From positions 96,001-160,000 of IMG/VR virus record IMGVR_UViG_3300013947_000019: 64,000 nt of DNA, one strand, 5' to 3'. The position numbers were made by a program, and so were the translations under genes. Shown piece by piece: positions 19,357 to 64,000 of this stretch. Source of the DNA: a virus. Its lineage: Duplodnaviria; Caudoviricetes. The notes beneath the pieces were generated by a model, which ran no database searches, was not told the origin of the DNA, and saw only the letters and a program-made list of their open reading frames with translations. Position 1 is the stretch's first letter. Each line of letters opens with the position of its first letter.

Positions 19357-20185
19357 CGTTCATATCCTCCTCATTATTGTTAGAGTTTTTATTAGTTTCG
19401 AGAATCGCTTCATTGATCATATCTTCTGCATCAATCAATTTGTCAGGATCAATATCATAAGGTTCACCATTTGGATAGATAACCAACATTGATCCATCTT
19501 CAAACATCGGATTAGATACACCAGGTTTATCACGAATAATAAGAGCCATTTCCATTTCCCATGTGTCTGTACAAGCCATAGCTCGAGAAGGACTCATAGC
19601 CTTATTAATAAGAATACCACGTTTGATGTTATTCATCATATTGGTACCCTCAATACCACTTGCTTTATTCATTGCAAGAGCTTTCAATCTCTTACCATAA
19701 GGAGCAAATGGAGCATCCTTCAAACGAATTCCCATCTTGACAAGTTTATTCAAGAAATCATCATTCGTTCGCAGAGGAGGCATAAAGCTATCACCTTTAG
19801 ATACATCAACAGTCAGCTCTTTGAACTCATCTGGTTCAATATCATTTCCGATAATTGCGGAGACCATGTTCTTTACTTTATCGGGCTTATAATGCTGCGC
19901 TTCATCCCGACGAGGATAGATCATCTTTACATGCCACCTGTTATATTCATCACGCTTCAGATAAATACCAGGTTTACGATGACCCCATGGTTCTCCTTTC
20001 TTAATCACGCCTCGATATGGAAAGATACCTTTTGTCATATCGGTATTGATTCGATATGCCATATTTAACCGGAATAGATCCGGCCCATCCTCTTCAATAT
20101 CTACCAAGTCAGGCATATCTGCTACAGTATACATTGTAGAGTCAATAAAGATGGCATCAAAATCAAGTTTTGATTTGCTGCTCAT
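19349..20185 (-). CDS. Hypothetical protein
   Basis: 278-aa ORF, translationally coupled to neighbours. Confidence 0.6.
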   Translation of the reverse strand: MSSKSKLDFDAIFIDSTMYTVADMPDLVDIEEDGPDLFRLNMAYRINTDMTKGIFPYRGVIKKGEPWGHRKPGIYLKRDEYNRWHVKMIYPRRDEAQHYKPDKVKNMVSAIIGNDIEPDEFKELTVDVSKGDSFMPPLRTNDDFLNKLVKMGIRLKDAPFAPYGKRLKALAMNKASGIEGTNMMNNIKRGILINKAMSPSRAMACTDTWEMEMALIIRDKPGVSNPMFEDGSMLVIYPNGEPYDIDPDKLIDAEDMINEAILETNKNSNNNEEDMNDE

Positions 20186-20955
20186 ATAATTACTCCTTGA
20201 TTATTCATTGGTAAGTTATTCCATTGAAACTGTTGTGTTACTGGAGGTTGTTGATTGATTTCATTCTGCTGACTAGTAAACTTATTGATATCTTTCCCAG
20301 TTAATATAGTTAAGAAGTTACGGATATCTCTGATATCTTCACTCACTCGATCAAGTTTATTGTTGATATCGAAATTTTGTTCAACGATATTCAATAATAA
20401 ACTATACACTTGAATGTCCAAATGATGAATGATCTCACAAAATTCCCGTACTTCTTTATGGGTCATACTACCAACAAATATTCCTTTATGCACAATTGTA
20501 ACACCAAATGATTCTGTAGAACCAAAAGCAAATACTGCAGGACTAACCACGATATCACCACTATAGAGTTTCATTTTACGACTGCACTCTTTAGCTACAT
20601 TTTTGTCCATCATGATATATCCATTTGGATCCTTTGTAAATAGCTTTGGGTTCGATAGTTCTTTATAAACTTTCTCTAGTAGATTTATAAAGATATATAT
20701 ACTATCGATTGGTATTGGAAGGAATCCACGTTCCTTCTTTTCTCGGTTATACTGTGGATATGTCATCCCTTTATGAATAACCATACTTGGAATCACTGAT
20801 ATCTTTGGTGCATAGATTAGAACTTTGGCATTTTCTCCAGGAGGAGCCCATTGTCTAAATATATCTAACTCTTCTTTATTTGTATTTGTTTTTGGCGATA
20901 CGACAACAGACCATTCCAGATCAAACCCCTGAAACACCGATGACTTCAGTCTCAT
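20182..20955 (-). CDS. Hypothetical protein
   Basis: 257-aa ORF within the operon. Confidence 0.55.
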   Translation of the reverse strand: MRLKSSVFQGFDLEWSVVVSPKTNTNKEELDIFRQWAPPGENAKVLIYAPKISVIPSMVIHKGMTYPQYNREKKERGFLPIPIDSIYIFINLLEKVYKELSNPKLFTKDPNGYIMMDKNVAKECSRKMKLYSGDIVVSPAVFAFGSTESFGVTIVHKGIFVGSMTHKEVREFCEIIHHLDIQVYSLLLNIVEQNFDINNKLDRVSEDIRDIRNFLTILTGKDINKFTSQQNEINQQPPVTQQFQWNNLPMNNQGVII

Positions 20956-21238: not shown

Positions 21239-22828
21239 CTAATCAACGAAGAATAATTTACCTGTTTTGCTTCTATTGATTAGTTCAGCTTTACGCTTAT
21301 CAAACTGCCTCATGGTTTTCATATAACCAGTATTTAATAGTTCGATATATACTACTTGTGATCCATCTTTGAGTTCACGAAGACGACCAGAGATTTGTCT
21401 TGCTGTCAACCAATTACTATATGTACTACAGTAAATGAGCACTTGCAAATTTGGTATATTTGCACCAGTACCAAGACTACTATCCGTAGCAACAATGATA
21501 CGTTTCTCCAGTGCAGCTTCTTTATCAGCTTTCTTCATTCCTCCATAATACACTGATGTTTCTCCAGGAAATACTTCTTCAGCGAGTTTCTGAATATAAT
21601 AAAGAGTATCAATCGACTGAGCCATAAGCATTAGTCGTTTATCTTTACCCATAATCCCTTTAGCCCACTTTAAAAGTACCATAATAGCATCATTATAACT
21701 TTGCCTTTGCCATTCAGGAGAGTTGATCAATTCGCGCTCATACGACTTAGTATTTAATCCAGTCTTATTATTAACCATAGCTCTGATCTGTTGAGGAGTA
21801 GGAGTCCATCGGAACTTCTTAATCATTATTGTAATATGTCTCTCTTCTTTGGTATTAAAGTCTCCACCAAAATGAGGAACATTCTTAAATAATGTTTTAA
21901 AGATCCAGTTCTCTTTCTGCTCTGCTCGACCAGGACTAGCTGACATATAGTAATTGGTATGAAAATTACTGAGTGCTTCGATCATAGATACGGCTCGAAT
22001 ATCACGATGAATTTCATCTATGATTTTGATATATGCACCAGTAGCTCTGAGCATCTCAATTGTTTGAATATTGCCATATCGTTTCTGATAACTTGCAATA
22101 GTATCAGTACTACAGATAAAGACTTGAATATCTTTACATTTTCCTTCTAAGATTTTATTGCAAGCATCAGAACCTTGGATGATCATAATATCATCTTTAT
22201 TAAGTGAAGTAAAGCTTGTAAAAGCATCTAACCATTCACCTAATAGTTTACTAAATGGAACAAAGACAATAACTTTCTTTTTCCAATAAGCTGTTGTAGC
22301 TACACCACAATACGTTTTCCCGAAACCTGTGGGGATATCAATTAGTTGCTGGGACTGTTTAATTGTTGCATACATGCCTTGCCGAGTCATAAACGTTAAT
22401 GCAACCTTTTGAATATCACTCCGAGGAGGAGCATATAATTCAATAGTAGATTCCTGACCAACAAAGGCATCATTCATAACTCGCATTGGATGATTAGGAA
22501 AGAAATTTTTAAGGCGATATAGATCATATCCACGATTGATACGAAACTCTTTATATTCAGGAACATAATACCCTCCGATAAGTTCATATCGGAAGGTCAT
22601 CTTATTCCAAATACTCAGAGATTTTTCGAACTCTCTATTATCGCCCATCTTATAGTCACAAATACTAATGTGGCCATGATGCAAAACAATTTCTTTTGTT
22701 CCTGTATGAATAAATCGATTTTGAATATCGACAGTTTTTCCTATGGGATGTTTGGGTATCAGTCGGATAAACCCATCCTCATCCCGGGGCATGTCTTTGA
22801 GTCTGGGATATGACTCCTGATAATCCAT
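21239..22828 (-). CDS. Superfamily 2 (DExH) helicase
   Basis: PTGFGKT, IIDEIH, MSASP, SLGTGANIP, QISGRLR. Confidence 0.9.
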   Translation of the reverse strand: MDYQESYPRLKDMPRDEDGFIRLIPKHPIGKTVDIQNRFIHTGTKEIVLHHGHISICDYKMGDNREFEKSLSIWNKMTFRYELIGGYYVPEYKEFRINRGYDLYRLKNFFPNHPMRVMNDAFVGQESTIELYAPPRSDIQKVALTFMTRQGMYATIKQSQQLIDIPTGFGKTYCGVATTAYWKKKVIVFVPFSKLLGEWLDAFTSFTSLNKDDIMIIQGSDACNKILEGKCKDIQVFICSTDTIASYQKRYGNIQTIEMLRATGAYIKIIDEIHRDIRAVSMIEALSNFHTNYYMSASPGRAEQKENWIFKTLFKNVPHFGGDFNTKEERHITIMIKKFRWTPTPQQIRAMVNNKTGLNTKSYERELINSPEWQRQSYNDAIMVLLKWAKGIMGKDKRLMLMAQSIDTLYYIQKLAEEVFPGETSVYYGGMKKADKEAALEKRIIVATDSSLGTGANIPNLQVLIYCSTYSNWLTARQISGRLRELKDGSQVVYIELLNTGYMKTMRQFDKRKAELINRSKTGKLFFVD

Positions 22829-33563: not shown

Positions 33564-35429
33564 TCAGATGTAATTCTGAATGAAACCTTCCAAGTGTACA
33601 GTACGAGCAGTGGCCAATTCATAAACTAGTGTGCTATTCTCAATCATAGTGGTGATAATAGATACTGGTTCAATGATTTGATTGTTAAATCGCGTTGTGA
33701 CTTCTTCGCCATTCGCTGCAGTATACTTACCAAACTCTTCATAATGTGAATCTACACCATTGATTTCATCAGCCGCAAAGATATCATTCAGATCCGTAAT
33801 ACCTTTCAGATTAAAATTCTTAATAGAAAATTCAGAATCCGAAATATGAACATTTGCGATATATTCAGTGACCATATTGTGAAGATCAACTATATCTACA
33901 TCAAAAGGACCATTATGAATCATATCAACTAAAGTATCAATAAATGAGTATTCAAAGATTGTACCTATGATCTGATTCTTATAATTATTCTCATGACGAG
34001 CTTTCTCTACATATTCATGAGAAATCAATGCAGCAAGTGCAAGAGAGTTACAATTAAGTACACCCTTCTCTACAGCTTCGGATGCAGACAACACTGCATC
34101 CAGAATCAATTCATATTTACGTTGAGAATCCTTCATTAACTTAGAGCCAATCTCAACTTCAATAAACTGGCCATAAGAAGTACGAAGACGTTTATTAAGT
34201 TCTAGTTTCTTGACTTCAGATTTTTCTTCATCCTGTTCTTTGCGCAGTTCATCATAACGAGCCTGTGCAACAGGACCAAGTTTCTTATGAATACGAATAC
34301 CCTTTACTTCATCAATATCAACTTGATATGAATCAGTAAACATCTCTTGAATCTTAGCCAGATGCCGTACATCACAATCAAATGTACAAAGTTCTGGGAT
34401 CATATCCTTATTAGATGCAATAGCTTGCCAGATAAGAGTTTCAAAGGTCAGCTGATTAACTAAACCACCAATACCTTTTTCATCAGTAATAATTGTACTA
34501 ATATCCTCCATAACCTCAGAGCTATAGGTTCGATAATCATCTAATGTAAAGATAGCTAAATTATTATAATCCTTGAAAAACTCTTCTACAGGAGTATTCC
34601 CTCGCATACTATTCAATTCAGCAATCAGAGATTTAAGAGTTCGTCTAGAAGCCTCACTGAGGCCATTACAGAGCACAATAATTGTCTTCGGATAAAATTT
34701 GCCGTTTGTATCCTGAGCTACATATCCCATCATAGCACGAATAACTTCTTCGTGTGCAATATCCAAAACACCATTACAGTGAAAAATTACACATTCTTTT
34801 TCCTCTGCTTTCATGGGACGAATAGAGAACTGTTTTGTAGCTTTAAAGAGCGGACTATTATGTACTGTCATGTTGAAATCTGTTGCAAGATTAGATTTAG
34901 CAATGGTGATATATGCACCATTCATCATCGCATCAGCCAGATTATATTCAATAGTAGCAGCCCAATCCGGATCTTGTACACATGTATAGAGCATTTGATG
35001 TAGATACTCACGTGTCATAGGAGCCTTATATGATTCAATAGCTTTGATAATATCATGAATGGTATTTTCCCAATCACGACGAGTAACAGTGCTGCAAGTA
35101 CGAGGAATCATCCCACGGATATTCTTATACATATTGGTATACAGAACACCAAGAGAAGTAGTACCATCTCCCACTTTATTGCCCTGCTGCTGAACTGCCT
35201 GATAAAGAATCTTCAGTACATACATAGAAAGCTCATTATCGAAACGAGTTAAACGCAGAGTTTCTTTACCATCTCGAGTATAGTAGGGAAGTCCATTCTG
35301 TGTCAGATAAGCATCTTTCGCATAGGGACCAAAAACAGTGACGATATCATCATGTAATTCTTTCATGGTTTTATCCATGATATCATAAAGATAATCGCCA
35401 CGAATCGCATTAGACTGGATGTTGATCAT
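33564..35429 (-). CDS. Phage GroEL-like chaperonin
   Basis: VFGPYA, YTRDGK, VGDGTTS, DAVLSASEAVEKG, IIEP. Start set at ATG 35429 after agagga. Confidence 0.85.
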   Translation of the reverse strand: MINIQSNAIRGDYLYDIMDKTMKELHDDIVTVFGPYAKDAYLTQNGLPYYTRDGKETLRLTRFDNELSMYVLKILYQAVQQQGNKVGDGTTSLGVLYTNMYKNIRGMIPRTCSTVTRRDWENTIHDIIKAIESYKAPMTREYLHQMLYTCVQDPDWAATIEYNLADAMMNGAYITIAKSNLATDFNMTVHNSPLFKATKQFSIRPMKAEEKECVIFHCNGVLDIAHEEVIRAMMGYVAQDTNGKFYPKTIIVLCNGLSEASRRTLKSLIAELNSMRGNTPVEEFFKDYNNLAIFTLDDYRTYSSEVMEDISTIITDEKGIGGLVNQLTFETLIWQAIASNKDMIPELCTFDCDVRHLAKIQEMFTDSYQVDIDEVKGIRIHKKLGPVAQARYDELRKEQDEEKSEVKKLELNKRLRTSYGQFIEVEIGSKLMKDSQRKYELILDAVLSASEAVEKGVLNCNSLALAALISHEYVEKARHENNYKNQIIGTIFEYSFIDTLVDMIHNGPFDVDIVDLHNMVTEYIANVHISDSEFSIKNFNLKGITDLNDIFAADEINGVDSHYEEFGKYTAANGEEVTTRFNNQIIEPVSIITTMIENSTLVYELATARTVHLEGFIQNYI

Positions 35430-39860: not shown

Positions 39861-40153
39861 CCTATAGTACCCCTAGTTTCCTAGTATTTAAAAGGGAGTG
39901 GACTATACAATCTCATATGAGTCGGTATTATAGTCTCTGAACGTCTACCACCGGCACTACCCGCTGAGGTATTTCGATGCGTCTGAGTGACTTGCACACT
40001 CGGTTACCCCTGACTTGATTGTTTTTATGGTTTCTGATCTTTTAAAGATATACCGCATTCACGCTTACCGTTTCCGGTTACGTTGTAGCCTATCAAGGTT
40101 ATGGGGGCTTTCCCGCAATTTAACCGATTTTACATCGACTAGATTTCAAGTTA
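39861..40153 (-). mobile_element. ORF-less group I intron A (293 nt) in the DNA polymerase gene
   Basis: P1 AUCGAU/GUCGAU with U-G. Core aaattgcgggaa, gttcagagacta, tgtatagtcc. Terminal G. Confidence 0.88.
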
Positions 40154-41158
40154 ATCGATAACAATGGTACATTTTCTTTTCTGATATCGAGTTCTATCTT
40201 CATATCGGAAGATACCATGTTTATAAGCTACAAATTCCAAAACCCAATCTGTTAACTTATCAATCATCGGTTTAATCTCTTCCGGCATAATATTTGGATC
40301 GATAAACTCTACATCAGCACATGCTATATCAGAATATAAATAAGCAGGTTTCTTCAAAGATAAAAACTCTCTGATATTTGCTTTATAATATACTCTGATT
40401 CGCATCTCATCACTTAAACTATCATATACCTGACCAATCTCTTCTGGATTACACAATGATTCATGACCAAACTTCTTCGTATATCGATCTATGAACTGTT
40501 GTCGACTTGGACTAATCCCCACAACATCCCATACATCATATTTCCAATCCGGTTCTTCATGAATGATATTATATACCCAGTTATAGAATTCAGTCATATG
40601 GAAGAATAATACATTATCTTCCAATAGATTTTCAAAACATTGACAAGCTGTACTGATCTGTCCACGACCACAGGATGTAACACTCATTGCTGAATGAATG
40701 TTATATAAAAAAGAAGAAGACTGACCTTCTGCACCATATCCTGAGTTTGCGGCCTTTTTATCGTTTGCTTGCTGAAGATCCTTAACCGCTGCTAAGAATT
40801 CATCACCAGCCTGCATTGCTTTAAACTTTTCTTTCTTATGAATCTTACGAATATCAAGCATATCATCCTTGATAATTTCGACATTCACATTACGCTTTTG
40901 CGACTTTGGATAAAAATAAACACCCGACTCAGCAATCAATGGTTTAGAATTCCTAAACCAATCCACTAAACTTAATAGTGTTGCTGATGCCAAAGTGTTT
41001 TCATAATTATTAAAAATCTTTACCTCTGTATCCTTTACGCGTTTTGCATATATCTGTGCAACCATCTCTTCTATCTTACTCTTCTCTACCTCTGGATGAG
41101 TTGCACACATTGCCATTGTCATACGAGAGATCCATTCGTGCTTCATTATCTCTTTCAT
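40154..41158 (-). CDS. Family B DNA polymerase subunit (motifs B and C), exon 1; spliced product about 667 aa
   Basis: Q...KKAANSGYG (motif B), VTSCGR, and ends IVID at the start of motif C. Confidence 0.9.
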
Positions 41159-43068: not shown

Positions 43069-45234
43069 ATGAGTATGAATGGTATTCTGCCGATTAAAGA
43101 AGGTGGAATTGCAACAGTATTTAATGTGCTGGAATATAATCAATTTAAGCATCATGGTGATCATAAAGATAATGAACTTTTTATCACATATAGAGATGAA
43201 ACAGGAAAGAAAAATGTCCATCGGATTACAGAACCTCCGATGGAAATCTTTTTTGTAAAACCTGAATATAGAAAAACATTTTTAACACCAAGAGAATATT
43301 ATCCGATTGATAATGTATATCCTGCGAAGGTTCCTGCTCGAATGGTATTACGTAGAATTTATGATGAAATGAAAGTAATACCAGATCCAGTTGGTCAGAA
43401 GTTAGTTCAGGTATATAATAATGGAGTTACAACTGGTAATTCTCGAGTAAAGAAAGAAATCTTCAAATGGCCGTATGCATTATTTGGCGATATGTCAGTT
43501 GAAGATTATTATTGGGTTCAATTGGGTGTTCATTATGATTTATCTCATGGTGGTGTAATTGATAAAGTATTTGCCGATATCGAGAATGATATCTATGGAT
43601 TGAATTCATCTGAACAAGCAATGAATCTAGATCCGGTAAATGCTGTAACATTGATTTTTAATTTTGATCAAAAGAGTCAATGGTCGAAACTTGGCATTCA
43701 AGTATTCACTTTTTTATTAAAGGATTTTAAGAGATATCCTCAACAAGAAAAGTTTGTAAAGAACTTGGATGATTTTTATGCAGAATGTCATAAGTGTTTT
43801 GATGTTCAGACTGTTATTAAGAAAGGTAAGAAGAAAGATGTTCACACAAAAGCTGAATATCATATTGTAATGTGTGAAACAGAAGATGATCTTTTGAAGA
43901 ATGTATTTAATACAATTAATAAATTTAAACCTGATTTGTGTGAATTCTGGAATATGCCGTACGATATGCCGAAGATGAAAGCTCGTATGGAGATTCTTGG
44001 AATGGATCCGGTAGAAATTATGTCTGATAAGGATTTCTTTCCAAGAGATTGTCAGTATGTAGACTTTCATATGGATAATCGTCCGATTGATATTGCAGAG
44101 CGTAATAGTTATATTCGTATGACTTCTACAACTCAGTATATCGATCAGATGCAGAATTATGCGGGTATTCGTAAAGGACGTAAAGCATATGGTTCAAATA
44201 AGTTAGATAATATTGCAAACATTGAACTTGGTATGGGTAAGTGGGATTTCCAAAAAGGCATCGATGTGACAAATGCTGCAATCTTGGATTATTGGAACTT
44301 TGTTCTGTATAATATTCGAGATGTTTGGTGTCAATATTTGATTGACTTTGTGACCAATGATACGATGTCTCTTGTATACGATATGAATCAGCATAATTGT
44401 CCGCTTCATCATCTGGTAAAGCAGACAAAGTATCAGAAACAAATTTATTATGCTGGATATCTGAGAAGAGGATTTGTTCCAGGTCATAATATCAATGTAA
44501 ACTATACAGAGTTTGCAAATGAGGAAGAAGCTGAGAAAGTAGAAGAAGCTCGTAAACGGAAAGCTCTTCGAATGGCTTTGGATAAGTTAAATCTGGATGA
44601 AGACGATATTGATGTTTCTTTGTTAGAAGGTATTGAGTCAGTAGATGATTTGGTTACCAGTATTGGTGAAGATAGTATATCTAATTCCGATAATAATGAT
44701 GATGAAACATCTGAAGCAGCTAAAACGGAAGCAGCAAATGCATATGATGAAAATCTAGCAATCTTTGAAGATAGTCCAAATCGTAAGTTACCATTACCTG
44801 GTGGTCTAGTTGGTAATCCAGATAATAACTTTGCAAATGGTGCAGAGTTAATTGATGGTATTCCGAGTAAGCATGTTTTTGATGAGGTAATGGATGAAGA
44901 CTACGCATCTGAGTATCCTTGGGCAAAGTTTACAAGATCACTATCTCGTTCTACTCAGATTGGTAGGTTAATTATTCCTCATAAAGTCAGTAAATATCAG
45001 AATCTGTTACCACTTGGTCAGATTAAACGAAAGGAAGATACAAAGTATTATATCTCTGGTGCAGAATTTACTGGAGATTATCTTTCTCAGGATTATCTAT
45101 CTCTTGGTGCAGCATGGTTTAATCTTCCATTGTCAGATGAATGTGGTGATATTGTTGACATGATGTTGGAAGGTAATTCTCTTGATGAAGCTTTGAAGAA
45201 AGTTGAAGAAAAAGACGGACAGGACTCGAAATGA
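43069..45234 (+). CDS. Family B DNA polymerase subunit with 3'-5' exonuclease and motif A
   Basis: ExoI FADIEND, ExoII WNMPYD, SNKLDNIA, ExoIII YNIRDV, and motif A-like DEDYASEYP. Confidence 0.85.
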   Translation: MSMNGILPIKEGGIATVFNVLEYNQFKHHGDHKDNELFITYRDETGKKNVHRITEPPMEIFFVKPEYRKTFLTPREYYPIDNVYPAKVPARMVLRRIYDEMKVIPDPVGQKLVQVYNNGVTTGNSRVKKEIFKWPYALFGDMSVEDYYWVQLGVHYDLSHGGVIDKVFADIENDIYGLNSSEQAMNLDPVNAVTLIFNFDQKSQWSKLGIQVFTFLLKDFKRYPQQEKFVKNLDDFYAECHKCFDVQTVIKKGKKKDVHTKAEYHIVMCETEDDLLKNVFNTINKFKPDLCEFWNMPYDMPKMKARMEILGMDPVEIMSDKDFFPRDCQYVDFHMDNRPIDIAERNSYIRMTSTTQYIDQMQNYAGIRKGRKAYGSNKLDNIANIELGMGKWDFQKGIDVTNAAILDYWNFVLYNIRDVWCQYLIDFVTNDTMSLVYDMNQHNCPLHHLVKQTKYQKQIYYAGYLRRGFVPGHNINVNYTEFANEEEAEKVEEARKRKALRMALDKLNLDEDDIDVSLLEGIESVDDLVTSIGEDSISNSDNNDDETSEAAKTEAANAYDENLAIFEDSPNRKLPLPGGLVGNPDNNFANGAELIDGIPSKHVFDEVMDEDYASEYPWAKFTRSLSRSTQIGRLIIPHKVSKYQNLLPLGQIKRKEDTKYYISGAEFTGDYLSQDYLSLGAAWFNLPLSDECGDIVDMMLEGNSLDEALKKVEEKDGQDSK

Positions 45235-45272: not shown

Positions 45273-46007
45273 ATGAAGCTGAAACCATTTATAGAGTTGT
45301 TACGCAGAGCGACTAAGTCAAAGTATACAAAGTTTCTGATGAGAGATAGAATGATCATGGGTTGTTATTCTGTAGATGATGATTCTGATATTGGGTTGCA
45401 TTATATTCTATATATACCAGAAGCAGAAGAGTATAATGATTCATTCTATGACATGACTTTGATCATAGAACCAAAAGAATTATTAGCCATGTATACTCGT
45501 GGTCATGCTGGGTTATTAGAAGCAAAAAAGAAAGTAAAAGCAAAACCAAAAGATGTAAAAGAAGAACTTCATATACGTGAAACATCAGATGGATTACGTT
45601 TGTGTATGATGTTTACTTGTTGTGATGAAGTGATAGGTACTGAGGTGATTAATCTTGAATATCCAGTGAGTAGTCAGTCTCCTGTGGTAGAAAATATTTG
45701 TACTACATATCAGAGAATGCTGGAATATATTAATGCTGGGGGTGTAGGAATAGCTTTTGACGCAAATCGATATAATTTATATCAGATTGCTGTAAAGTCT
45801 CCACAGATTTATTTCTTTAAGATTGACATTCGCGGAGAACGAATTAAGATACCTATTTATAAATCAATGCTTCAAAGTATGTCAGACCCAGATGAATTTT
45901 ATCTATTGGTAGAGCAAACTTGTATTGATCATTTATGGGTATATGCTATCCAGCTAACTAATAAAGGACTAACTGAGCAATACATTGGGTATATTCAGAA
46001 TTTCTAA
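45273..46007 (+). CDS. Hypothetical protein
   Basis: RBS aaggagg. Confidence 0.6.
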   Translation: MKLKPFIELLRRATKSKYTKFLMRDRMIMGCYSVDDDSDIGLHYILYIPEAEEYNDSFYDMTLIIEPKELLAMYTRGHAGLLEAKKKVKAKPKDVKEELHIRETSDGLRLCMMFTCCDEVIGTEVINLEYPVSSQSPVVENICTTYQRMLEYINAGGVGIAFDANRYNLYQIAVKSPQIYFFKIDIRGERIKIPIYKSMLQSMSDPDEFYLLVEQTCIDHLWVYAIQLTNKGLTEQYIGYIQNF

Positions 46008-48892: not shown

Positions 48893-50200
48893 TTACATTA
48901 TAGACAATAATTCCATTGATTTATTTATGGATTTTGTACAATTATACTTTTTGTTTTTCTTATCTATATATGGAAATGGGTTACTACGTTTAATTCTTTT
49001 CTTTAATATAATAAATCCGTCTTTATCTCTATTTTGTTTAGGTCTCAATTGAATAAATCCATTCTTATCTCGTTGTGTTGAATCATATGAACTTAATTTC
49101 ATAGATTCTTCTTTATTGATCTTTTTCAATGCTTTCTGATGAGCATTCTCTCCATTATGCGATGTTGCATATTGGCTATAAGCATACCATGATTGATGTG
49201 ATTCAAATGCTTTAATCATTTCTAATTTTCCGAATTTTACTAGCTGTAGTATCTTATTGGTTTTCTTTAGCATTCGATTGATATTCTTTTTCAATAACGA
49301 TATATCTACATCATGGGTTATATTATTATAAGTAAAATGAAATCCTAAATAAACTAATCCTTGTGAAAATGGATGAATATTTGATTTTGGGTTTAGCTTT
49401 AAGTTCAAATTATCTTCAATAAATTTTCTAATCTCTTTTATACAATATTGTAAATAATTCTTATCCTTATGTATAATATAAAAATTATCCATATATCTCC
49501 CATAATATTTTATATGTAATTTTTCTTTTATAAAATGATCAAGTGAGTTTAAATAATAAACAGCTAGCCATTGAGATGTTTGAAACCCTATACAGATTCC
49601 CTTATCTGATCCATCATATTCACCAATAGCATATACTTGTTTTCTAATGAGTTCTATGCACTGATCATCAATTGGAAGTTTCTTTATTTGATTCATACAG
49701 ATCTCTCTGTCTATCTCATAGAAATAATGATGTATATCACCTGAAAATATCCAACCATCATTATTCCAATTACATTCTGTTGCTGCGTAAGATCTCATAA
49801 AATGTGATAATCTATCTAATGCTAATTTAGACCCTTTACCAGGTTGACTAGCGTAATTATCATATATTAATTTTGGGCTTATAATAGGCTCTAATATTTT
49901 AGTGCAAGCAACTCGATGTATAATTTTATCTTCAAACTGATTTGCAGTAATATTTCTTTTCTTAGGTTCATAAATTATAAAAGAATATAGTTTCTTAATT
50001 TTATAAGTATTCTCCATAAGTTGTTTACAGATATCATATGATTTAGAAAATATATCAGTATGAAATTCTGCAGTAGTATGCTGACCTTTCTTTCCATTCT
50101 CTACATAATATGCACTACTTAATATATTAGAAAACCTCATAGCATCACTGAAGTCTATAAATTTTTTATCTTTATTCTTTTTCTTTTTATTCTTACTCAT
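48893..50200 (-). CDS. DGR reverse transcriptase with YMDN in place of YMDD
   Basis: YEPKKR, DKIIHR, GDIHHYF, GICIGFQTSQ (DGR-type SQ), YGRYMDNF, YLGF; adjacent to TR and avd. Confidence 0.9.
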   Translation of the reverse strand: MSKNKKKKNKDKKFIDFSDAMRFSNILSSAYYVENGKKGQHTTAEFHTDIFSKSYDICKQLMENTYKIKKLYSFIIYEPKKRNITANQFEDKIIHRVACTKILEPIISPKLIYDNYASQPGKGSKLALDRLSHFMRSYAATECNWNNDGWIFSGDIHHYFYEIDREICMNQIKKLPIDDQCIELIRKQVYAIGEYDGSDKGICIGFQTSQWLAVYYLNSLDHFIKEKLHIKYYGRYMDNFYIIHKDKNYLQYCIKEIRKFIEDNLNLKLNPKSNIHPFSQGLVYLGFHFTYNNITHDVDISLLKKNINRMLKKTNKILQLVKFGKLEMIKAFESHQSWYAYSQYATSHNGENAHQKALKKINKEESMKLSSYDSTQRDKNGFIQLRPKQNRDKDGFIILKKRIKRSNPFPYIDKKNKKYNCTKSINKSMELLSIM

Positions 50201-50452
50201 TAGGTTTTATAACTCCTTAAAACTGTTTTTGAAAAAGAATTGCCCACCCTGGTCCACAGGGTGAGTGTCTCTAATCAGATAAATTACTCTAAGTTTTAAT
50301 TAAATAAAACTACGATACATCTATCTGTGCCGGGTACATTCTCCGAATATGAAATTCGGATAGGATGTAGTCTCCTTAGTTCTTTCGGACGCATTTCATC
50401 TTAACCAGCAATGGGTTTCAATTACTTTTTCTGCCTACTTAAATGAACCAAT

Positions 50453-50545
50453 CGGGCGAAACCCATTGCTATTGCTAGGGTTGTTGTTGTTGATCGTTCC
50501 ATCACTGTTCACATTGTAAACATTGCTGCTACTGTTAGGAGACGA
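50453..50545 (-). repeat. DGR template repeat (TR)
   Basis: 93-bp match to 51325-51417 with 15 mismatches, all at TR adenines; AAC/AAT-rich. Confidence 0.97.
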
Positions 50546-50576
50546 AACTAACAGACTACATCCTTTATTACAATGT

Positions 50577-51122
50577 TTACAACTTCTTTATTAATGTATA
50601 AAACCCTTCAGAATCTCTATAGTAATCACCTAAGGAAACAATTTCATTAAGTTTAGTTATTTTATATTGAAGCATATCATGTTTACGCTTCTTATAGTAT
50701 TCTTTCTTAGTTGGATAACTATTAAATTTAGATTTTATATTGCTATAGTATGCTTGTAAACTTTTAGTTAATTCGCTATATAATCTAGCATATTCTTCAG
50801 GATTTTTAAGTGTAATAATACTATTCGTAACAATCATCAATGCTCCTAAATGTCTAGCCATATCTATAGAATATTCTATCTTCTTAAGTTTCTTTTTTAA
50901 TTCTTTAAGATAATTAGGATGCATATTTGCTGCTTCAATTATACTTGTTTCTAACTCAAGTGCAGTATTATGAAGTTTCTGAACTAAATCATATCTATAT
51001 CTTTTTGGAAATACATTATCATTATTTGTAATTAAAAAGATATACTTTGTTAATGCTTCTGCTTTAAATACAACTGCAATTGGATTTTTCTTTCTTTTCA
51101 TTTGTATACTAGATCTTCCCAT
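50577..51122 (-). CDS. avd: DGR accessory variability determinant (Avd-like)
   Basis: FPKRYRYDLVQKLHNTALEL..IIEAAN helical-bundle pattern, basic, located between target gene and TR. Confidence 0.85.
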   Translation of the reverse strand: MGRSSIQMKRKKNPIAVVFKAEALTKYIFLITNNDNVFPKRYRYDLVQKLHNTALELETSIIEAANMHPNYLKELKKKLKKIEYSIDMARHLGALMIVTNSIITLKNPEEYARLYSELTKSLQAYYSNIKSKFNSYPTKKEYYKKRKHDMLQYKITKLNEIVSLGDYYRDSEGFYTLIKKL

Positions 51123-51294: not shown

Positions 51295-52368
51295 TTACGT
51301 TAATTGAAGAGTTATACACACATGCGGGCGAAACCCACCGCTAGAGCTAGGGCGGTTGTAGTCGATCGTACCATCACTGATCACACCGTAAACATAGCTG
51401 CTACCGTAAGGAGACGATGTCCACCAATACTTAGCTGAACCATTTAAATTACAAATTCTGTTAGTATTACTATTGTAATAACTAAATCCTCCATTAACCT
51501 GTTCATATGAAGGAATAAATACTTTATTAGTAACATTATTAACTGTAACATCATTACAGTATTCCAATGCAGTAGCAGACAAATTAGAACTTTGCCAACT
51601 CACACATTTATTAGCTAAAGTGGAACCCTTATATGTATTATTACTACCAAAAGAAGTAGTTTCTGTCATTTCAGCTAATCCTAAATACCAATGTGTACCT
51701 TCCTGATGAACAACTCTCCATTCTTTATTGTCAAAGGTGACTATATTACCGACCGCAACAGTTCCACTAATAGGAATAAATACAAGTTCGACAAAATAGT
51801 CATTGGTATCTTCCGTTACTGTAACTTGTTTACTATCAGTTTTTCCGTTAAATGTACCAGATATGGTCCAAGTACCAGTATAATCGCTTCCAGGTAATTC
51901 AATTTTTGCTTTTCCTAAGGAACTGACATACGAACTATATACAGTAATACTACCTTTTGTTGCACTAAAAGTTGTATTATATGCAACACTTGGAACAGTA
52001 ACCCATATACTTTTACCAGATCCAGTAGATACTACAATTGAATCAATATTAGATGCCATTGTTTCAAATGATGCATCAGATGCTGTAGGAACACCTTTAC
52101 CGGTAATAGAGGTAGCTATCATTCTCTTACCATAAAGAATTAATTCATTAGCATTCATATCGTAATCAGTCAGCTCCTCTTTTGTTACAAATTTTTCCAT
52201 TTGTGTATTTACATTTTGAAAACTAATATCTACTGCATCTAATTTAGTTTTTACAGTTGTTTCATCAGTTTCTGATAATGATACATTATCAGCATCTGTT
52301 TTTAAATGAATTTCATCATAAGTGCCACTATCATTTTTACGATTAAGTTTCTGTTTTAAAATAGCCAT
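51295..52368 (-). CDS. DGR target: tail-fibre/receptor-binding-like protein with C-terminal CLec (DUF6273-like) domain
   Basis: VGNIVTF..EWRVV..WWTSSP..GFRP; VR at the 3' end. Confidence 0.85.
   Translation of the reverse strand: MAILKQKLNRKNDSGTYDEIHLKTDADNVSLSETDETTVKTKLDAVDISFQNVNTQMEKFVTKEELTDYDMNANELILYGKRMIATSITGKGVPTASDASFETMASNIDSIVVSTGSGKSIWVTVPSVAYNTTFSATKGSITVYSSYVSSLGKAKIELPGSDYTGTWTISGTFNGKTDSKQVTVTEDTNDYFVELVFIPISGTVAVGNIVTFDNKEWRVVHQEGTHWYLGLAEMTETTSFGSNNTYKGSTLANKCVSWQSSNLSATALEYCNDVTVNNVTNKVFIPSYEQVNGGFSYYNSNTNRICNLNGSAKYWWTSSPYGSSYVYGVISDGTIDYNRPSSSGGFRPHVCITLQLT
51325..51417 (-). repeat. DGR variable repeat (VR)
   Basis: Encodes SSPYGSSYVYGVISDGTIDYNRPSSSGGFRP; TR would encode SSPNSSSNVYNVNSDGTINNNNPSNSNGFRP. 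Confidence 0.97.
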
Positions 52369-61712: not shown

Positions 61713-64000
61713 ATGAATGAAAAACTCTTGTCCACTCTTGTAAATGGGTTGGATGATTCACTGCCCCGCGCAGCGAAAGATAAGATTACACAGAGTATCA
61801 CTTCAGTTTCTCGTACATTGAATGATGCTAAAATGAATAGTACCAAAACTACGCTTCTTGGTTATGGTACAAAGAATGATAAAGTAAAGGGGACAAAGCT
61901 CCCTGATATTTCTACTGATGCTCAAATTTATACAAATATTTCTGATATGATCAATGGATCCAATAATAATGATGTAGCCGGATTTGGTACATTAATGGAT
62001 TCATTAGTCATGAAGAACAAGAAATACTACACGATTATCAAGGACTATGAAATCATGCCGATTTTGATTCCTCAGATTAATCGTGTACTGATGTTCTTGG
62101 TAAATGAATGTCTATCTCCCGATATTCAGAATGATGCTACTTTCTTGATCAAATATAAAGGATCTACTGCAGTAAATGCTATTCAGTCTGATATTGAACA
62201 GATTAAGAAAGAGATGAAGCTTGATAACACTCTTCGTGATGTTTATATGAATCGATATAAGCTTGGTCATGAATACATGCTTGTGATTGATTATAATGAA
62301 ACATTTGATCATATGCTTCAAATGATCAAACAGAAGGGTCTGAATGAATCTACTCGTAATATGACAGATATGGATTTTCTTGATCAGTCCTATACTGATC
62401 TTTCCAGTTCTATTAATGAGTGTTCTGTTGATATGAAGATCCTATCTCTTCGTGAATCTCATGGAATGACTGCAGATGGTACTGTACTTCGTCAACAGTC
62501 CAGTGATGAAGGATTCATTGATGAGAATACAATTAAGCTTTCTTTTGATAATATGAATATTGTGGTAGAGAAATCTCCCATTGCTCATATGATGAAGGAG
62601 GCCCATGGTGAATTGTTATCTGAAGCTTATTCTGAGTTTAAGCTTGAGAATGTCATGAAGAGATCTACGAATGGAACTCTGAATGAAGCTGTGGTCGATA
62701 CGTCTAAATTAACTATGATTGTTCAAAAGATGAAGCAGAAGCAGCTTCGTCGGTGTATGTTAGAAAGACTTGATCCTGCTAGAGTTTTCTGTTTGAAGAT
62801 TGGTGGTCGTGTAATTGGTTACTTTGTTGTAAATGATATTACAATGGATACAGGTACGACAAATGTAATCAACTTTGCACAAGCATTAAAAGATCAGCTG
62901 CTGAAGTCTCGTGCTACGAATCTGCAGCAGTCTACGAAGACTGCAGAAGAGATTATCTCTAAAACTCTTGCAGAAAAGATCATTAATACCTTTGATCCAA
63001 ATATTGGTATTAATCGTGTTGAAGATATTGATCTGATGCATGATTTTGTTCTCAATAATGAAATCTATAAAGGTAATAAGAGAATCACTTTCTATTATGC
63101 AGATGAGATCTTTGATCTTTCTAGAGCAGATGATTCTATTCTGACAAATGCCGTATTCTTTACTAAATTATATTCTACCCTACTGATGAATAATATCATG
63201 ACCAAGGTTCTTCGTGGACGTGGCAGACAGATTCATACAGTTCATATGGGTGCATCTCCCAATGTTCAGCGTTATCTGCAGAATGCGATGGCTTCTCTCA
63301 CAATGCCTGAAAATAACTTAGGTACATTACATGGGTCATTTGAACAAATTTTGAACCCGTTTAATGCTTCTTCGGATATTATAATTCCAACAGACGATGG
63401 AACAGAAAAATATATCGAAACAGATTATATTCCTGGACAGGATGTCGATATGAACGATGACTTCCTGCGAACTCTATTGAATGCAATTGTGTCTTCGTTT
63501 GGTTTAGACTCTGCTGTTATTGATGCTACAAATGGTAATCTCCAGTTTGCTCGTACATTATCTATGGAGTCTTTGCAAATCTGTAATGCTATTCGTAATG
63601 AACAGCAGGATCTTCATGATAACTGGGAAGCTATGTGTTTACGTATCCTGGAAATTTGTGGCTCTGACCAGACACGAGAAGCAATTGATCAGGGATTGAT
63701 TGAAGTTCAGTTCTTTACTCCGAAATCTCTTGTTATGCAGAATACAATTGAAGACTTGAATAATGCAAAATCTTATGCAGAAAGTATTGCAGATATTATT
63801 CCTGAATTCAATGTAGATAATGCAGAGCAGAAGAGAACGAAGTTTATCTATTCTCGTATTAAATCTATGGTAAATCTGGATTGGTCTAAGATTGATGAGG
63901 ATGTTAAGAACGCTGGTATTGATGCAATTGCTGATGATATTGAAGCTAAGATCCAGCAGACAATCCAGGAATACAAAGACAATACTGTCGAGCAGAAATA
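61713..64000 (+). CDS. Portal protein, runs off the window end; absent from the ORF track
   Basis: MNEKLLSTL...KDYEIMPILIPQINRVLMFLVNECLSPD...LERLDPARV resembles T4 gp20-type portal motifs; AACA-N6-TA at 61639. Confidence 0.7.
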   Translation, partial: MNEKLLSTLVNGLDDSLPRAAKDKITQSITSVSRTLNDAKMNSTKTTLLGYGTKNDKVKGTKLPDISTDAQIYTNISDMINGSNNNDVAGFGTLMDSLVMKNKKYYTIIKDYEIMPILIPQINRVLMFLVNECLSPDIQNDATFLIKYKGSTAVNAIQSDIEQIKKEMKLDNTLRDVYMNRYKLGHEYMLVIDYNETFDHMLQMIKQKGLNESTRNMTDMDFLDQSYTDLSSSINECSVDMKILSLRESHGMTADGTVLRQQSSDEGFIDENTIKLSFDNMNIVVEKSPIAHMMKEAHGELLSEAYSEFKLENVMKRSTNGTLNEAVVDTSKLTMIVQKMKQKQLRRCMLERLDPARVFCLKIGGRVIGYFVVNDITMDTGTTNVINFAQALKDQLLKSRATNLQQSTKTAEEIISKTLAEKIINTFDPNIGINRVEDIDLMHDFVLNNEIYKGNKRITFYYADEIFDLSRADDSILTNAVFFTKLYSTLLMNNIMTKVLRGRGRQIHTVHMGASPNVQRYLQNAMASLTMPENNLGTLHGSFEQILNPFNASSDIIIPTDDGTEKYIETDYIPGQDVDMNDDFLRTLLNAIVSSFGLDSAVIDATNGNLQFARTLSMESLQICNAIRNEQQDLHDNWEAMCLRILEICGSDQTREAIDQGLIEVQFFTPKSLVMQNTIEDLNNAKSYAESIADIIPEFNVDNAEQKRTKFIYSRIKSMVNLDWSKIDEDVKNAGIDAIADDIEAKIQQTIQEYKDNTVEQK

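Follow-up and report, generated by a model that had tools for sequence, protein, structure and literature searches.

A recurrent terminal peptide on the retroelement and DNA-acting proteins of an AR9-like jumbo phage, and a clamp-fold protein as its candidate partner

The present study concerns a diversity-generating retroelement (DGR) of an uncultured phage and a short peptide, hereafter the tag, which recurs in both DGR proteins and in other proteins of the same genome. The stretch analysed (the window) comprises 64,000 nucleotides of IMG/VR record IMGVR_UViG_3300013947_000019, that is, bases 96001-160000 of a 259,863-bp genome (a single viral contig, 37% GC, rated complete by CheckV). Coordinates without a prefix are window positions, and those with the prefix G000 are whole-genome positions. 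The large terminase shares about 33% identity with its counterparts in Bacillus phages AR9/PBS1 and in Staphylococcus jumbo phages, and the genome encodes split multisubunit RNA polymerases. Because of these two features, the source, a gut phage, is classified from its sequence as an AR9-like jumbo phage.

The DGR cassette lies on the minus strand in the order target gene, accessory variability determinant (Avd), template repeat (TR), and reverse transcriptase (RT). The target gene (51295-52368; 357 aa) carries the variable repeat (VR; 51325-51417), located by its match to the TR, at its 3′ end, within the part encoding the C-terminal region. Avd (50577-51122; 181 aa) matches the Pfam bAvd-like family below the family cut-off, and its identity fits the DGR because its gene sits between the target gene and the TR. 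The TR (50453-50545), 93 nt long, is a direct repeat that matches the VR at 84% identity and, within the repeat, differs from it solely at positions where the TR has an adenine on the coding strand. The RT (48893-50200; 435 aa) matches Pfam RVT_1, has 692 homologues, and was modelled by AlphaFold2 with a mean predicted local distance difference test (pLDDT) score of 85.6. Thus, with an RT, an accessory protein, and an adenine-specific TR/VR pair whose VR closes the target gene, the cassette is, by its sequence features, a regular DGR.

The tag is about 12 residues long, with the consensus (Y)-R-D-x-[DE]-G-F-[IVL]-x-L-x-[PK]-[KR]. A strict pattern, R-D-x-[DNE]-G-[FY]-[IY]-x-L, matches four times in the window, always on the minus strand and in real open reading frames (ORFs), with two copies in the RT tail and one each at the Avd C-terminus and the N-terminus of a superfamily 2 (SF2) helicase. 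An earlier note, made from the letters of the window, had placed strong copies at 49004-49072 (RT), 50592-50618 (Avd), and 22760-22786 (helicase), and all four are confirmed. A weaker fifth copy that it proposed, KDPNGYIMM in ORF 20182-20955, is not retained: it lies in mid-ORF (20605-20631, minus strand) and is not kept in two orthologues.

The AlphaFold2 model of the RT shows a fold that ends at about residue 342 and is followed by a thumb helix (349-369) and a tail of 66 residues. Both tag copies lie in this tail, beyond the catalytic fold, as the note had claimed. The first copy spans residues 376-388 (49037-49075; strict match 377-385 at 49046-49072) and takes the shape of a β-hairpin in the model, where strands 372-377 and 383-387 flank a D-K-N-G turn at a pLDDT of about 70. 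The second copy spans residues 390-402 (48995-49033; strict match 391-399 at 49004-49030). The tail as a whole is modelled with middling to low confidence; confidence is low for copy 2 and for residues 402-414, the latter disordered. From this model, the tag probably forms a small β-hairpin. The RT ends in a conserved helix (417-434). This amphipathic C-terminal helix (48893-48950, minus strand), preceded by a basic stretch, is common to jumbo-phage DGR RTs, occurs also in lineages whose RT is untagged, and is absent from ordinary DGR RTs; a scan of the genome's proteins for it returned no convincing family.

Avd consists of a helical-bundle region, a variable linker, and the tag at residues 168-180 of 181 (50583-50621; strict match 50592-50618, ending four residues before the stop), which was recognised by motif, profile, and alignment. 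When five jumbo-phage Avds are aligned, the tag's R, G, F, and L are the sole tail positions identical in all of them. The SF2 helicase (21239-22828, minus strand; 529 aa; Pfam ResIII, DEAD, and Helicase_C) carries the tag, by motif and profile, at residues 14-26 (22751-22789; strict match 15-23 at 22760-22786). The DGR target gene is untagged.

Beyond the window, translation of the whole genome in six frames gave 10 strict matches, all of them in long ORFs. A 13-column profile built from the regex-matched copies was applied to a proteome of 275 crude ORFs; at a threshold of 24 bits, it detected 23 copies, distributed over 20 proteins, where shuffled proteomes gave 0.05. No score fell between 15 and 24 bits. 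Chance occurrence of the tag is thus excluded. Over the 23 profile copies, the consensus is R-D-x-[DE]-G-F-I-x-L-x-P-K, with no Q and no aromatic pair. The next match, at 15 bits, is the C-terminus of an RNase H (Pfam RNase_H; G000 62278-62910); it is probably a degenerate but real tag, since the orthologue in a related genome (G003, below) carries a clear tag at the same place.

A repeat at the DNA level was considered and rejected. Synonymous positions vary among the window copies, so that it is the peptide which is conserved. Its placement is also distinctive: among 24 regex-matched copies, 88% are no more than 60 residues away from a protein end, whereas 41% would be expected under uniform placement, and the flanks contain 64% disorder-promoting residues versus 55%. 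Most copies are C-terminal, others are N-terminal, and some are internal. Two plus-strand ORFs that overlap in different frames (G000:C1:65506-66216 and 66149-66898) each bear a tag, C-terminal in the former and near the N-terminus in the latter, the two being 90 nt apart. They could be two genes, or one frameshifted gene with a tandem tag like that of the RT. Our literature search found no paper on a shared peptide tag of such kind in jumbo phages.

The tag is not a general feature of the RT or Avd families. In a comparison of 120 RT homologues, tail tags were present in 45 of the 79 closer ones, many of the tagged ones residing on contigs of 200-330 kb, versus 1 of the 41 more distant ones, which have a median length of 364 residues and end directly past the RT fold. 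Furthermore, no tag was found in 78 DGR loci, about 600 kb of sequence altogether, taken from viral contigs of ordinary size. Since ordinary DGR RTs and loci lack the tag and jumbo-phage ones carry it, the sequences indicate that it was added within this phage group. In the tagged lineages examined, Avd is tagged in all and the RT in most; two lineages combine an untagged RT with a tagged Avd. This pattern, a tagged Avd where the RT is not, fits delivery of an RT-Avd complex as a unit. As far as we found, no DGR with such a tail has been reported in the literature.

An IMG/VR search with a single helicase protein returned only a near-identical genome. Two more distant relatives, G002 (287,660 bp, 51% GC) and G003 (230,855 bp, 41% GC), have terminases 63-73% identical to that of the source phage. 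The same tag occurs in about 17 copies in G002 and about 12 in G003, at orthologous ends of the same proteins, where the tails around the tags are not alignable. On individual proteins, tags have been gained or lost, and some of the copies in the source genome are degenerate or missing in G003; the helicase tag, for instance, is kept in the G002 orthologue and degenerate in that of G003. Topoisomerase II has an N-terminal tag in G002 (L104 5895-8537, plus strand) and none in the source phage (G000:C1:4533-7106, minus strand). Two further genomes, G004 and G006, have terminases 37-38% identical to that of the source phage and no DGR. They use a dialect of the tag, Y-V-R-N-x-x-G-Y-I-x-[VL], at the C-terminus of DnaB and, in 3-4 copies, at the C-terminus of an RNA polymerase piece. 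Because the tag is kept in relatives and has a dialect in a sister clade, the sequences indicate a system that is old, clade-wide, and drifting. The earlier note had suggested a phage-specific motif. The tag is not private to one phage, as the whole clade has it and a sister clade uses the dialect.

The tail of the AR9 DnaB has neither the tag nor the dialect. The AR9 DnaB-like helicase (L198 3583-5268) has G-I-P-F as its last residues, after an acidic stretch, an ending which we take to recall the bacterial single-stranded DNA-binding protein (SSB) C-terminal tip, and which may be AR9's own docking tail.

Tag carriers were identified by Pfam, PHROG, and PDB sequence searches. By Pfam and PHROG they include a divergent DnaB-like helicase, the SF2 helicase, the RT, three HNH endonucleases, Avd, a PC4-like single-stranded DNA (ssDNA) binder, a MerR-type helix-turn-helix (HTH) protein, a Bro-N/ANT protein, and an NAD-dependent ligase (G000:C1:248028-250271, minus strand), in addition to the RNase H with its degenerate C-terminal copy. 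A carrier of 630 aa is a β-subunit piece of the non-virion RNA polymerase (nvRNAP), matching PDB 7S00 chain c with an E value of 8e-41; that chain is the corresponding β-subunit piece of the AR9 nvRNAP (PMC9209446). It bears three tags within a 125-residue tail past the AR9-aligned part. Eight carriers have no assigned function, and the smallest carriers have 108-181 aa. The enrichment in proteins acting on DNA or RNA and in mobile-element proteins is strong. Together with the conservation in orthologues, the excess over background, and the absence from ordinary DGR loci, it bears out all the predictions that the note had put forward for checking.

These identities, together with the placement of the copies, point to a short linear docking motif for one shared phage partner at the DNA, and we put the probability of this interpretation at roughly 0.6. 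Under such a mechanism, one to three copies of the tag on flexible N- or C-terminal tails, rarely in linkers, of proteins acting on phage DNA or RNA would gather otherwise unrelated proteins at a shared partner on replicating and transcribing DNA. The DGR would have been recruited into the system when a tail bearing the local tag arose on Avd (in all tagged lineages examined) and on the RT (in most of them), and the RT-Avd complex would be delivered to the same place as the helicases, the ligase, the RNase H, and the nvRNAP.

The same carriers bear on other explanations. A capsid-targeting signal, which would load proteins into the virion for injection as the T4 capsid-targeting sequence does, would suit jumbo phages, since these package many proteins. 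However, none of 12 virion, head, protease, or terminase-family proteins has the tag, the tag stands at either terminus or internally, and its clients are replication and repair enzymes. The other RNA polymerase pieces examined are untagged, so any virion subunits among them are untagged too. We regard this explanation as most improbable.

Import into, or localisation at, a phage-made DNA compartment, nucleus-like but not made of chimallin, would account for several of the clients. The helicase, ligase, RNase, and nvRNAP resemble imports of the chimallivirus nucleus (PMC13282480), and tags occur on selfish elements needing access to DNA (the three HNH endonucleases and the DGR) as well as on regulators (the HTH and Bro/ANT proteins). 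On the other hand, a search with phiKZ gp54 and PF25677 found no chimallin match in the CheckV-complete genome, in line with the reported absence of chimallin from the PBS1/AR9 group (10.1101/2023.02.24.529968). Known import into the phage nucleus uses surface patches rather than terminal peptides (PMC12908238). Moreover, both DNA polymerase subunits, primase, SbcCD, the Dda-like helicase, and the other RNA polymerase subunits are untagged. An import signal is therefore unlikely.

The multiple copies on one chain (three on the nvRNAP piece, two on the RT), their β-hairpin character, and the disordered tails that hold them would also suit a homotypic sticker, whose hairpins pair with one another and, with one to three of them on each chain, would give rise to a condensate or replication factory with no reader. 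Likely oligomeric carriers, DnaB and Avd, fit this as well; Avd is a pentamer in Bordetella phage. In contrast, genomes of 37-51% GC all maintain a strict D-G-F with a basic end, which suggests that a fixed pocket recognises the tag, and we consider a sticker quite unlikely.

A signal of proteostasis, either a dock for the chaperonin or a host chaperone or a degron timing the removal of DNA enzymes, is suggested by a core Cpn60-type chaperonin without a visible co-chaperonin (33564-35429, minus strand; 621 aa; Pfam Cpn60_TCP1), which was considered as a reader. The tag core G-F-I-x-L-x-P may bear a loose likeness to the GroES mobile loop of the G-I-V-L-P type; our literature check on a GroEL-binding peptide found nothing. 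The nucleic-acid bias of the carriers, the absence of the tag from large virion proteins, and its presence on proteins of 108-181 aa speak against such a signal. Co-folding of the chaperonin (alignment A4) with RT residues 366-410 scored 0.00 without controls and counts neither way. Overall, a role in proteostasis is very unlikely. The chaperonin has an intact GDGTT motif and is kept in all five genomes, with 16-23% identity between the clades of the two tag dialects.

In the ranking we arrived at, the four rivals are at lower odds than a docking motif, which is the most economical explanation. Its leading candidate partner is an untagged protein of 244 aa encoded at 45273-46007 on the plus strand. 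The source phage shares 103 proteins with G002 and G003, and 58 with G004 and G006 as well, most of them annotated. Two untagged core proteins suspected as hubs were set aside, as they look like an SbcD-type metallophosphoesterase and an HNH/nicking-endonuclease-like enzyme. Pfam clamp families (PF00712, PF02916, PF00705) gave no match in the genome, and Iyer and colleagues (PMC7824862) have noted that a classical sliding clamp is lacking in this jumbo-phage group. The 244-aa protein belongs to no Pfam or PHROG family, and its 21 homologues are all unnamed. Its AlphaFold2 model, built from a 17-sequence alignment, has a mean pLDDT of 91.7. All the Foldseek PDB matches listed for this model are clamps (PCNA, 9-1-1, T4/RB69 gp45, and β), and VIA-align superposed about 200 of the 244 residues on whole PCNA subunits (chain range 5-255) with Z values of 10-11.5. 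BFVD matches comprise phage clamps, viral PCNAs, and a herpesvirus processivity factor, together with two longer proteins, one of 508 aa named 'ribonuclease H' and one of 526 aa without a name. The model thus has a two-domain PCNA-type clamp fold over the whole chain, in a group of phages from which no clamp was previously known. A clamp had been among the possible partners listed in the earlier note.

The position of the gene adds to the fold. Immediately upstream on the plus strand lies the N-subunit of a divergent B-family DNA polymerase (43069-45234; 721 aa; PHROG DNA polymerase), which is untagged here. The clamp-fold gene abuts or overlaps the N-subunit gene even in relatives that are just 37-43% identical, and in one of them, L202, the N-subunit itself ends in a tag, immediately before the clamp-fold gene. 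By sequence, the clamp family is detectable only in genomes with the G-F-I-x-L form of the tag; searches by hidden Markov model and by profile-profile comparison found no member in G005, G007, AR9, or phiKZ. No match was obtained in L199 and L200 either, which are 21-kb partial pieces and uninformative.

Two observations on neighbouring features can be added. In the source clade, the DNA polymerase is encoded by N- and C-subunit genes on opposite strands (40151-41158, minus strand; L112/L128 region), and all C-subunits end in Y-x-[ST]-N-I-V-x-[IV]; in G004 and G006, it is a single gene of 1265-1273 aa (G004 197726-201547). The chaperonin, the clamp-fold protein, and the NAD ligase share a second peptide at their very C-terminal end, [GDE]-[FY]-[IM]-x-[NQ]-[FY], with 0-2 further residues before the stop. 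It is kept in the G002 and G003 orthologues, with a rough chance expectation of about 0.07 matches per 275 ORFs, and forms part of the last β-strand in the clamp model.

We infer both that the tag binds a partner and that this partner is the 244-aa protein. The clamp-fold protein is the best candidate found, and it is possible, at somewhat less than even odds, that it is the reader of the tag. If so, the tag would be the phage equivalent of the PCNA-interacting peptide (PIP) box or of the T4 gp45-binding tails. A broader proposal, which we advance more tentatively, is that the stand-alone PCNA-fold protein serves as a general hub with the tag as its private client code, tying replication, nvRNAP transcription, repair, homing endonucleases, and DGR retrohoming to one moving platform; for replication, the clients in question would be DnaB, the ligase, the RNase H, and the ssDNA binder. 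A hint of the Rosetta-stone type comes from the RNase H: in chimalliviruses, it is fused to a clamp-derived domain, and here, it is separate and tagged, which would suggest an interaction of the two. In the source genome, the RNase H and clamp-fold genes lie about 79 kb apart.

Several observations weigh against a docking motif read by the clamp-fold protein. In this genome, the tag is absent from both DNA polymerase subunits, the primase, and the Dda-like helicase, as well as from SbcC and the SbcD-like phosphoesterase, the exonuclease, RusA, and topoisomerase II. Its sequence resembles neither the PIP box (Q-x-x-[LIM]-x-x-[FY]-[FY]) nor the bacterial Q-L-[SD]-L-F, and clients such as Bro/ANT, the HTH protein, and the PC4-like binder are not classical clamp partners. 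Searches of the genome for clamp-loader families PF13177 and PF00004 (DNA_pol3_delta2 and AAA/RFC-type) gave no match. Despite their tag dialect, G004 and G006 yielded no member of the clamp family by the same sequence searches, and about 15 untagged core proteins without assigned function are alternative readers. Finally, the chimallivirus clamp-derived domain works as a polymerase-bound monomer and not as a free ring that serves numerous clients (PMC13648687).

The tags on the RT and Avd point to a testable route by which DGR cDNA could get to the VR and replace it, namely delivery through the replisome or a clamp-like factor. If the hub proposal is true, mutagenic retrohoming would be physically coupled to the replisome. 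The tag also offers a sequence-only way to list the proteins sent to jumbo-phage DNA, including those of no assigned function and selfish elements. Furthermore, with the stand-alone clamp-fold protein, the very recent discovery of a clamp-derived polymerase subunit in chimalliviruses extends to AR9-like phages, and the peptide with its reader might serve as an orthogonal recruitment pair for engineering. New in our study are the retroelement evidence, the triple-tagged nvRNAP subunit and the RNase H as clients, the dialect of the sister clade, and the candidate reader. As a separate observation on the gene content, a full-length polyphosphate kinase 1 (PP_kinase, PP_kinase_C_1, PP_kinase_C; G000:C1:166985-168847, minus strand) belongs to the gene set common to all five jumbo phages compared and is also present on the related contig L199.

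Known targeting systems differ from the present one in form. The T4 capsid-targeting sequence is N-terminal, occurs on head proteins, and is removed by the prohead protease, whereas the tag is mostly C-terminal and not on virion-family proteins. Nuclear import in chimalliviruses involves chimallin and folded surface patches; here, chimallin has no match, and the tag is linear and terminal. A parallel is offered by T7, in which the acidic aromatic C-terminal tails of the gp4 helicase and the gp2.5 SSB dock on T7 DNA polymerase, comparable with the tip of bacterial SSB. There, as here, a helicase and an ssDNA binder have the same short terminal peptide after an acidic linker, for replisome assembly. 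In contrast, the T7/SSB tails are found on two or three proteins and need a free C-terminal carboxylate, whereas the tag is on about 20 proteins and at either end.

The chimallivirus DNA polymerase provides another comparison. It consists of an N-subunit, a C-subunit, and Rhc, in which an N-terminal RNase H1 domain is fused to a C-terminal clamp-derived domain; Rhc joins the split polymerase, binds the emerging duplex as a monomer, and supports late transcription (PMC13648687, PMC13648698; preprints, October 2026). Both systems come from one broad group of phages, in which the B-family polymerase is split and a classical clamp is lacking, and in both, a PCNA/9-1-1-like domain accompanies the polymerase. 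Transcription is involved on both sides: Rhc has its role in late transcription, and the source phage has its tagged nvRNAP piece. The differences are that Rhc is a fused protein, whereas the source phage has a stand-alone 244-aa clamp fold and a separate, tagged RNase H; that no sequence similarity of the 244-aa protein to phiKZ was detected; and that those papers describe no shared tag. A clamp fold in a monomeric factor is also known from UL42 of herpes simplex virus.

The PIP box and gp45-tail systems are like the present one in that a single short peptide, which can be multi-copy, recurs at the flexible ends of numerous DNA enzymes with no relation to each other, among them polymerase, ligase, RNase H, helicases, and a transcription component. 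RB69 has a classical clamp-binding tail at the C-terminus of its polymerase (entry 1B77), and T4 ligase binds gp45 via a peptide (entry 6DRT). As in sliding-clamp systems, the clamp fold here is encoded beside the polymerase, and the L202 polymerase subunit ends in the tag. Unlike in those systems, the tag sequence fits no known clamp motif, no loader is detectable, and a retroelement is found among the clients, as are homing endonucleases and regulators. The tag's clients closely match those of T4 gp45, namely polymerase, ligase, RNase H, and late-transcription factors, and the three tags on the nvRNAP subunit recall T4 late transcription via gp45. They match those of PCNA too, including mobile elements that borrow the motif. 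The PIP box of LINE-1 ORF2p and the clamp targeting of Tn7 TnsE are examples of mobile elements that use docking on the host replisome as a way to replicating DNA. In our case, the host is the phage, and the tag and its reader are phage-specific. The DGR RT, Avd, and the three HNH endonucleases would be equivalent cases, having acquired a docking peptide of the replisome type.

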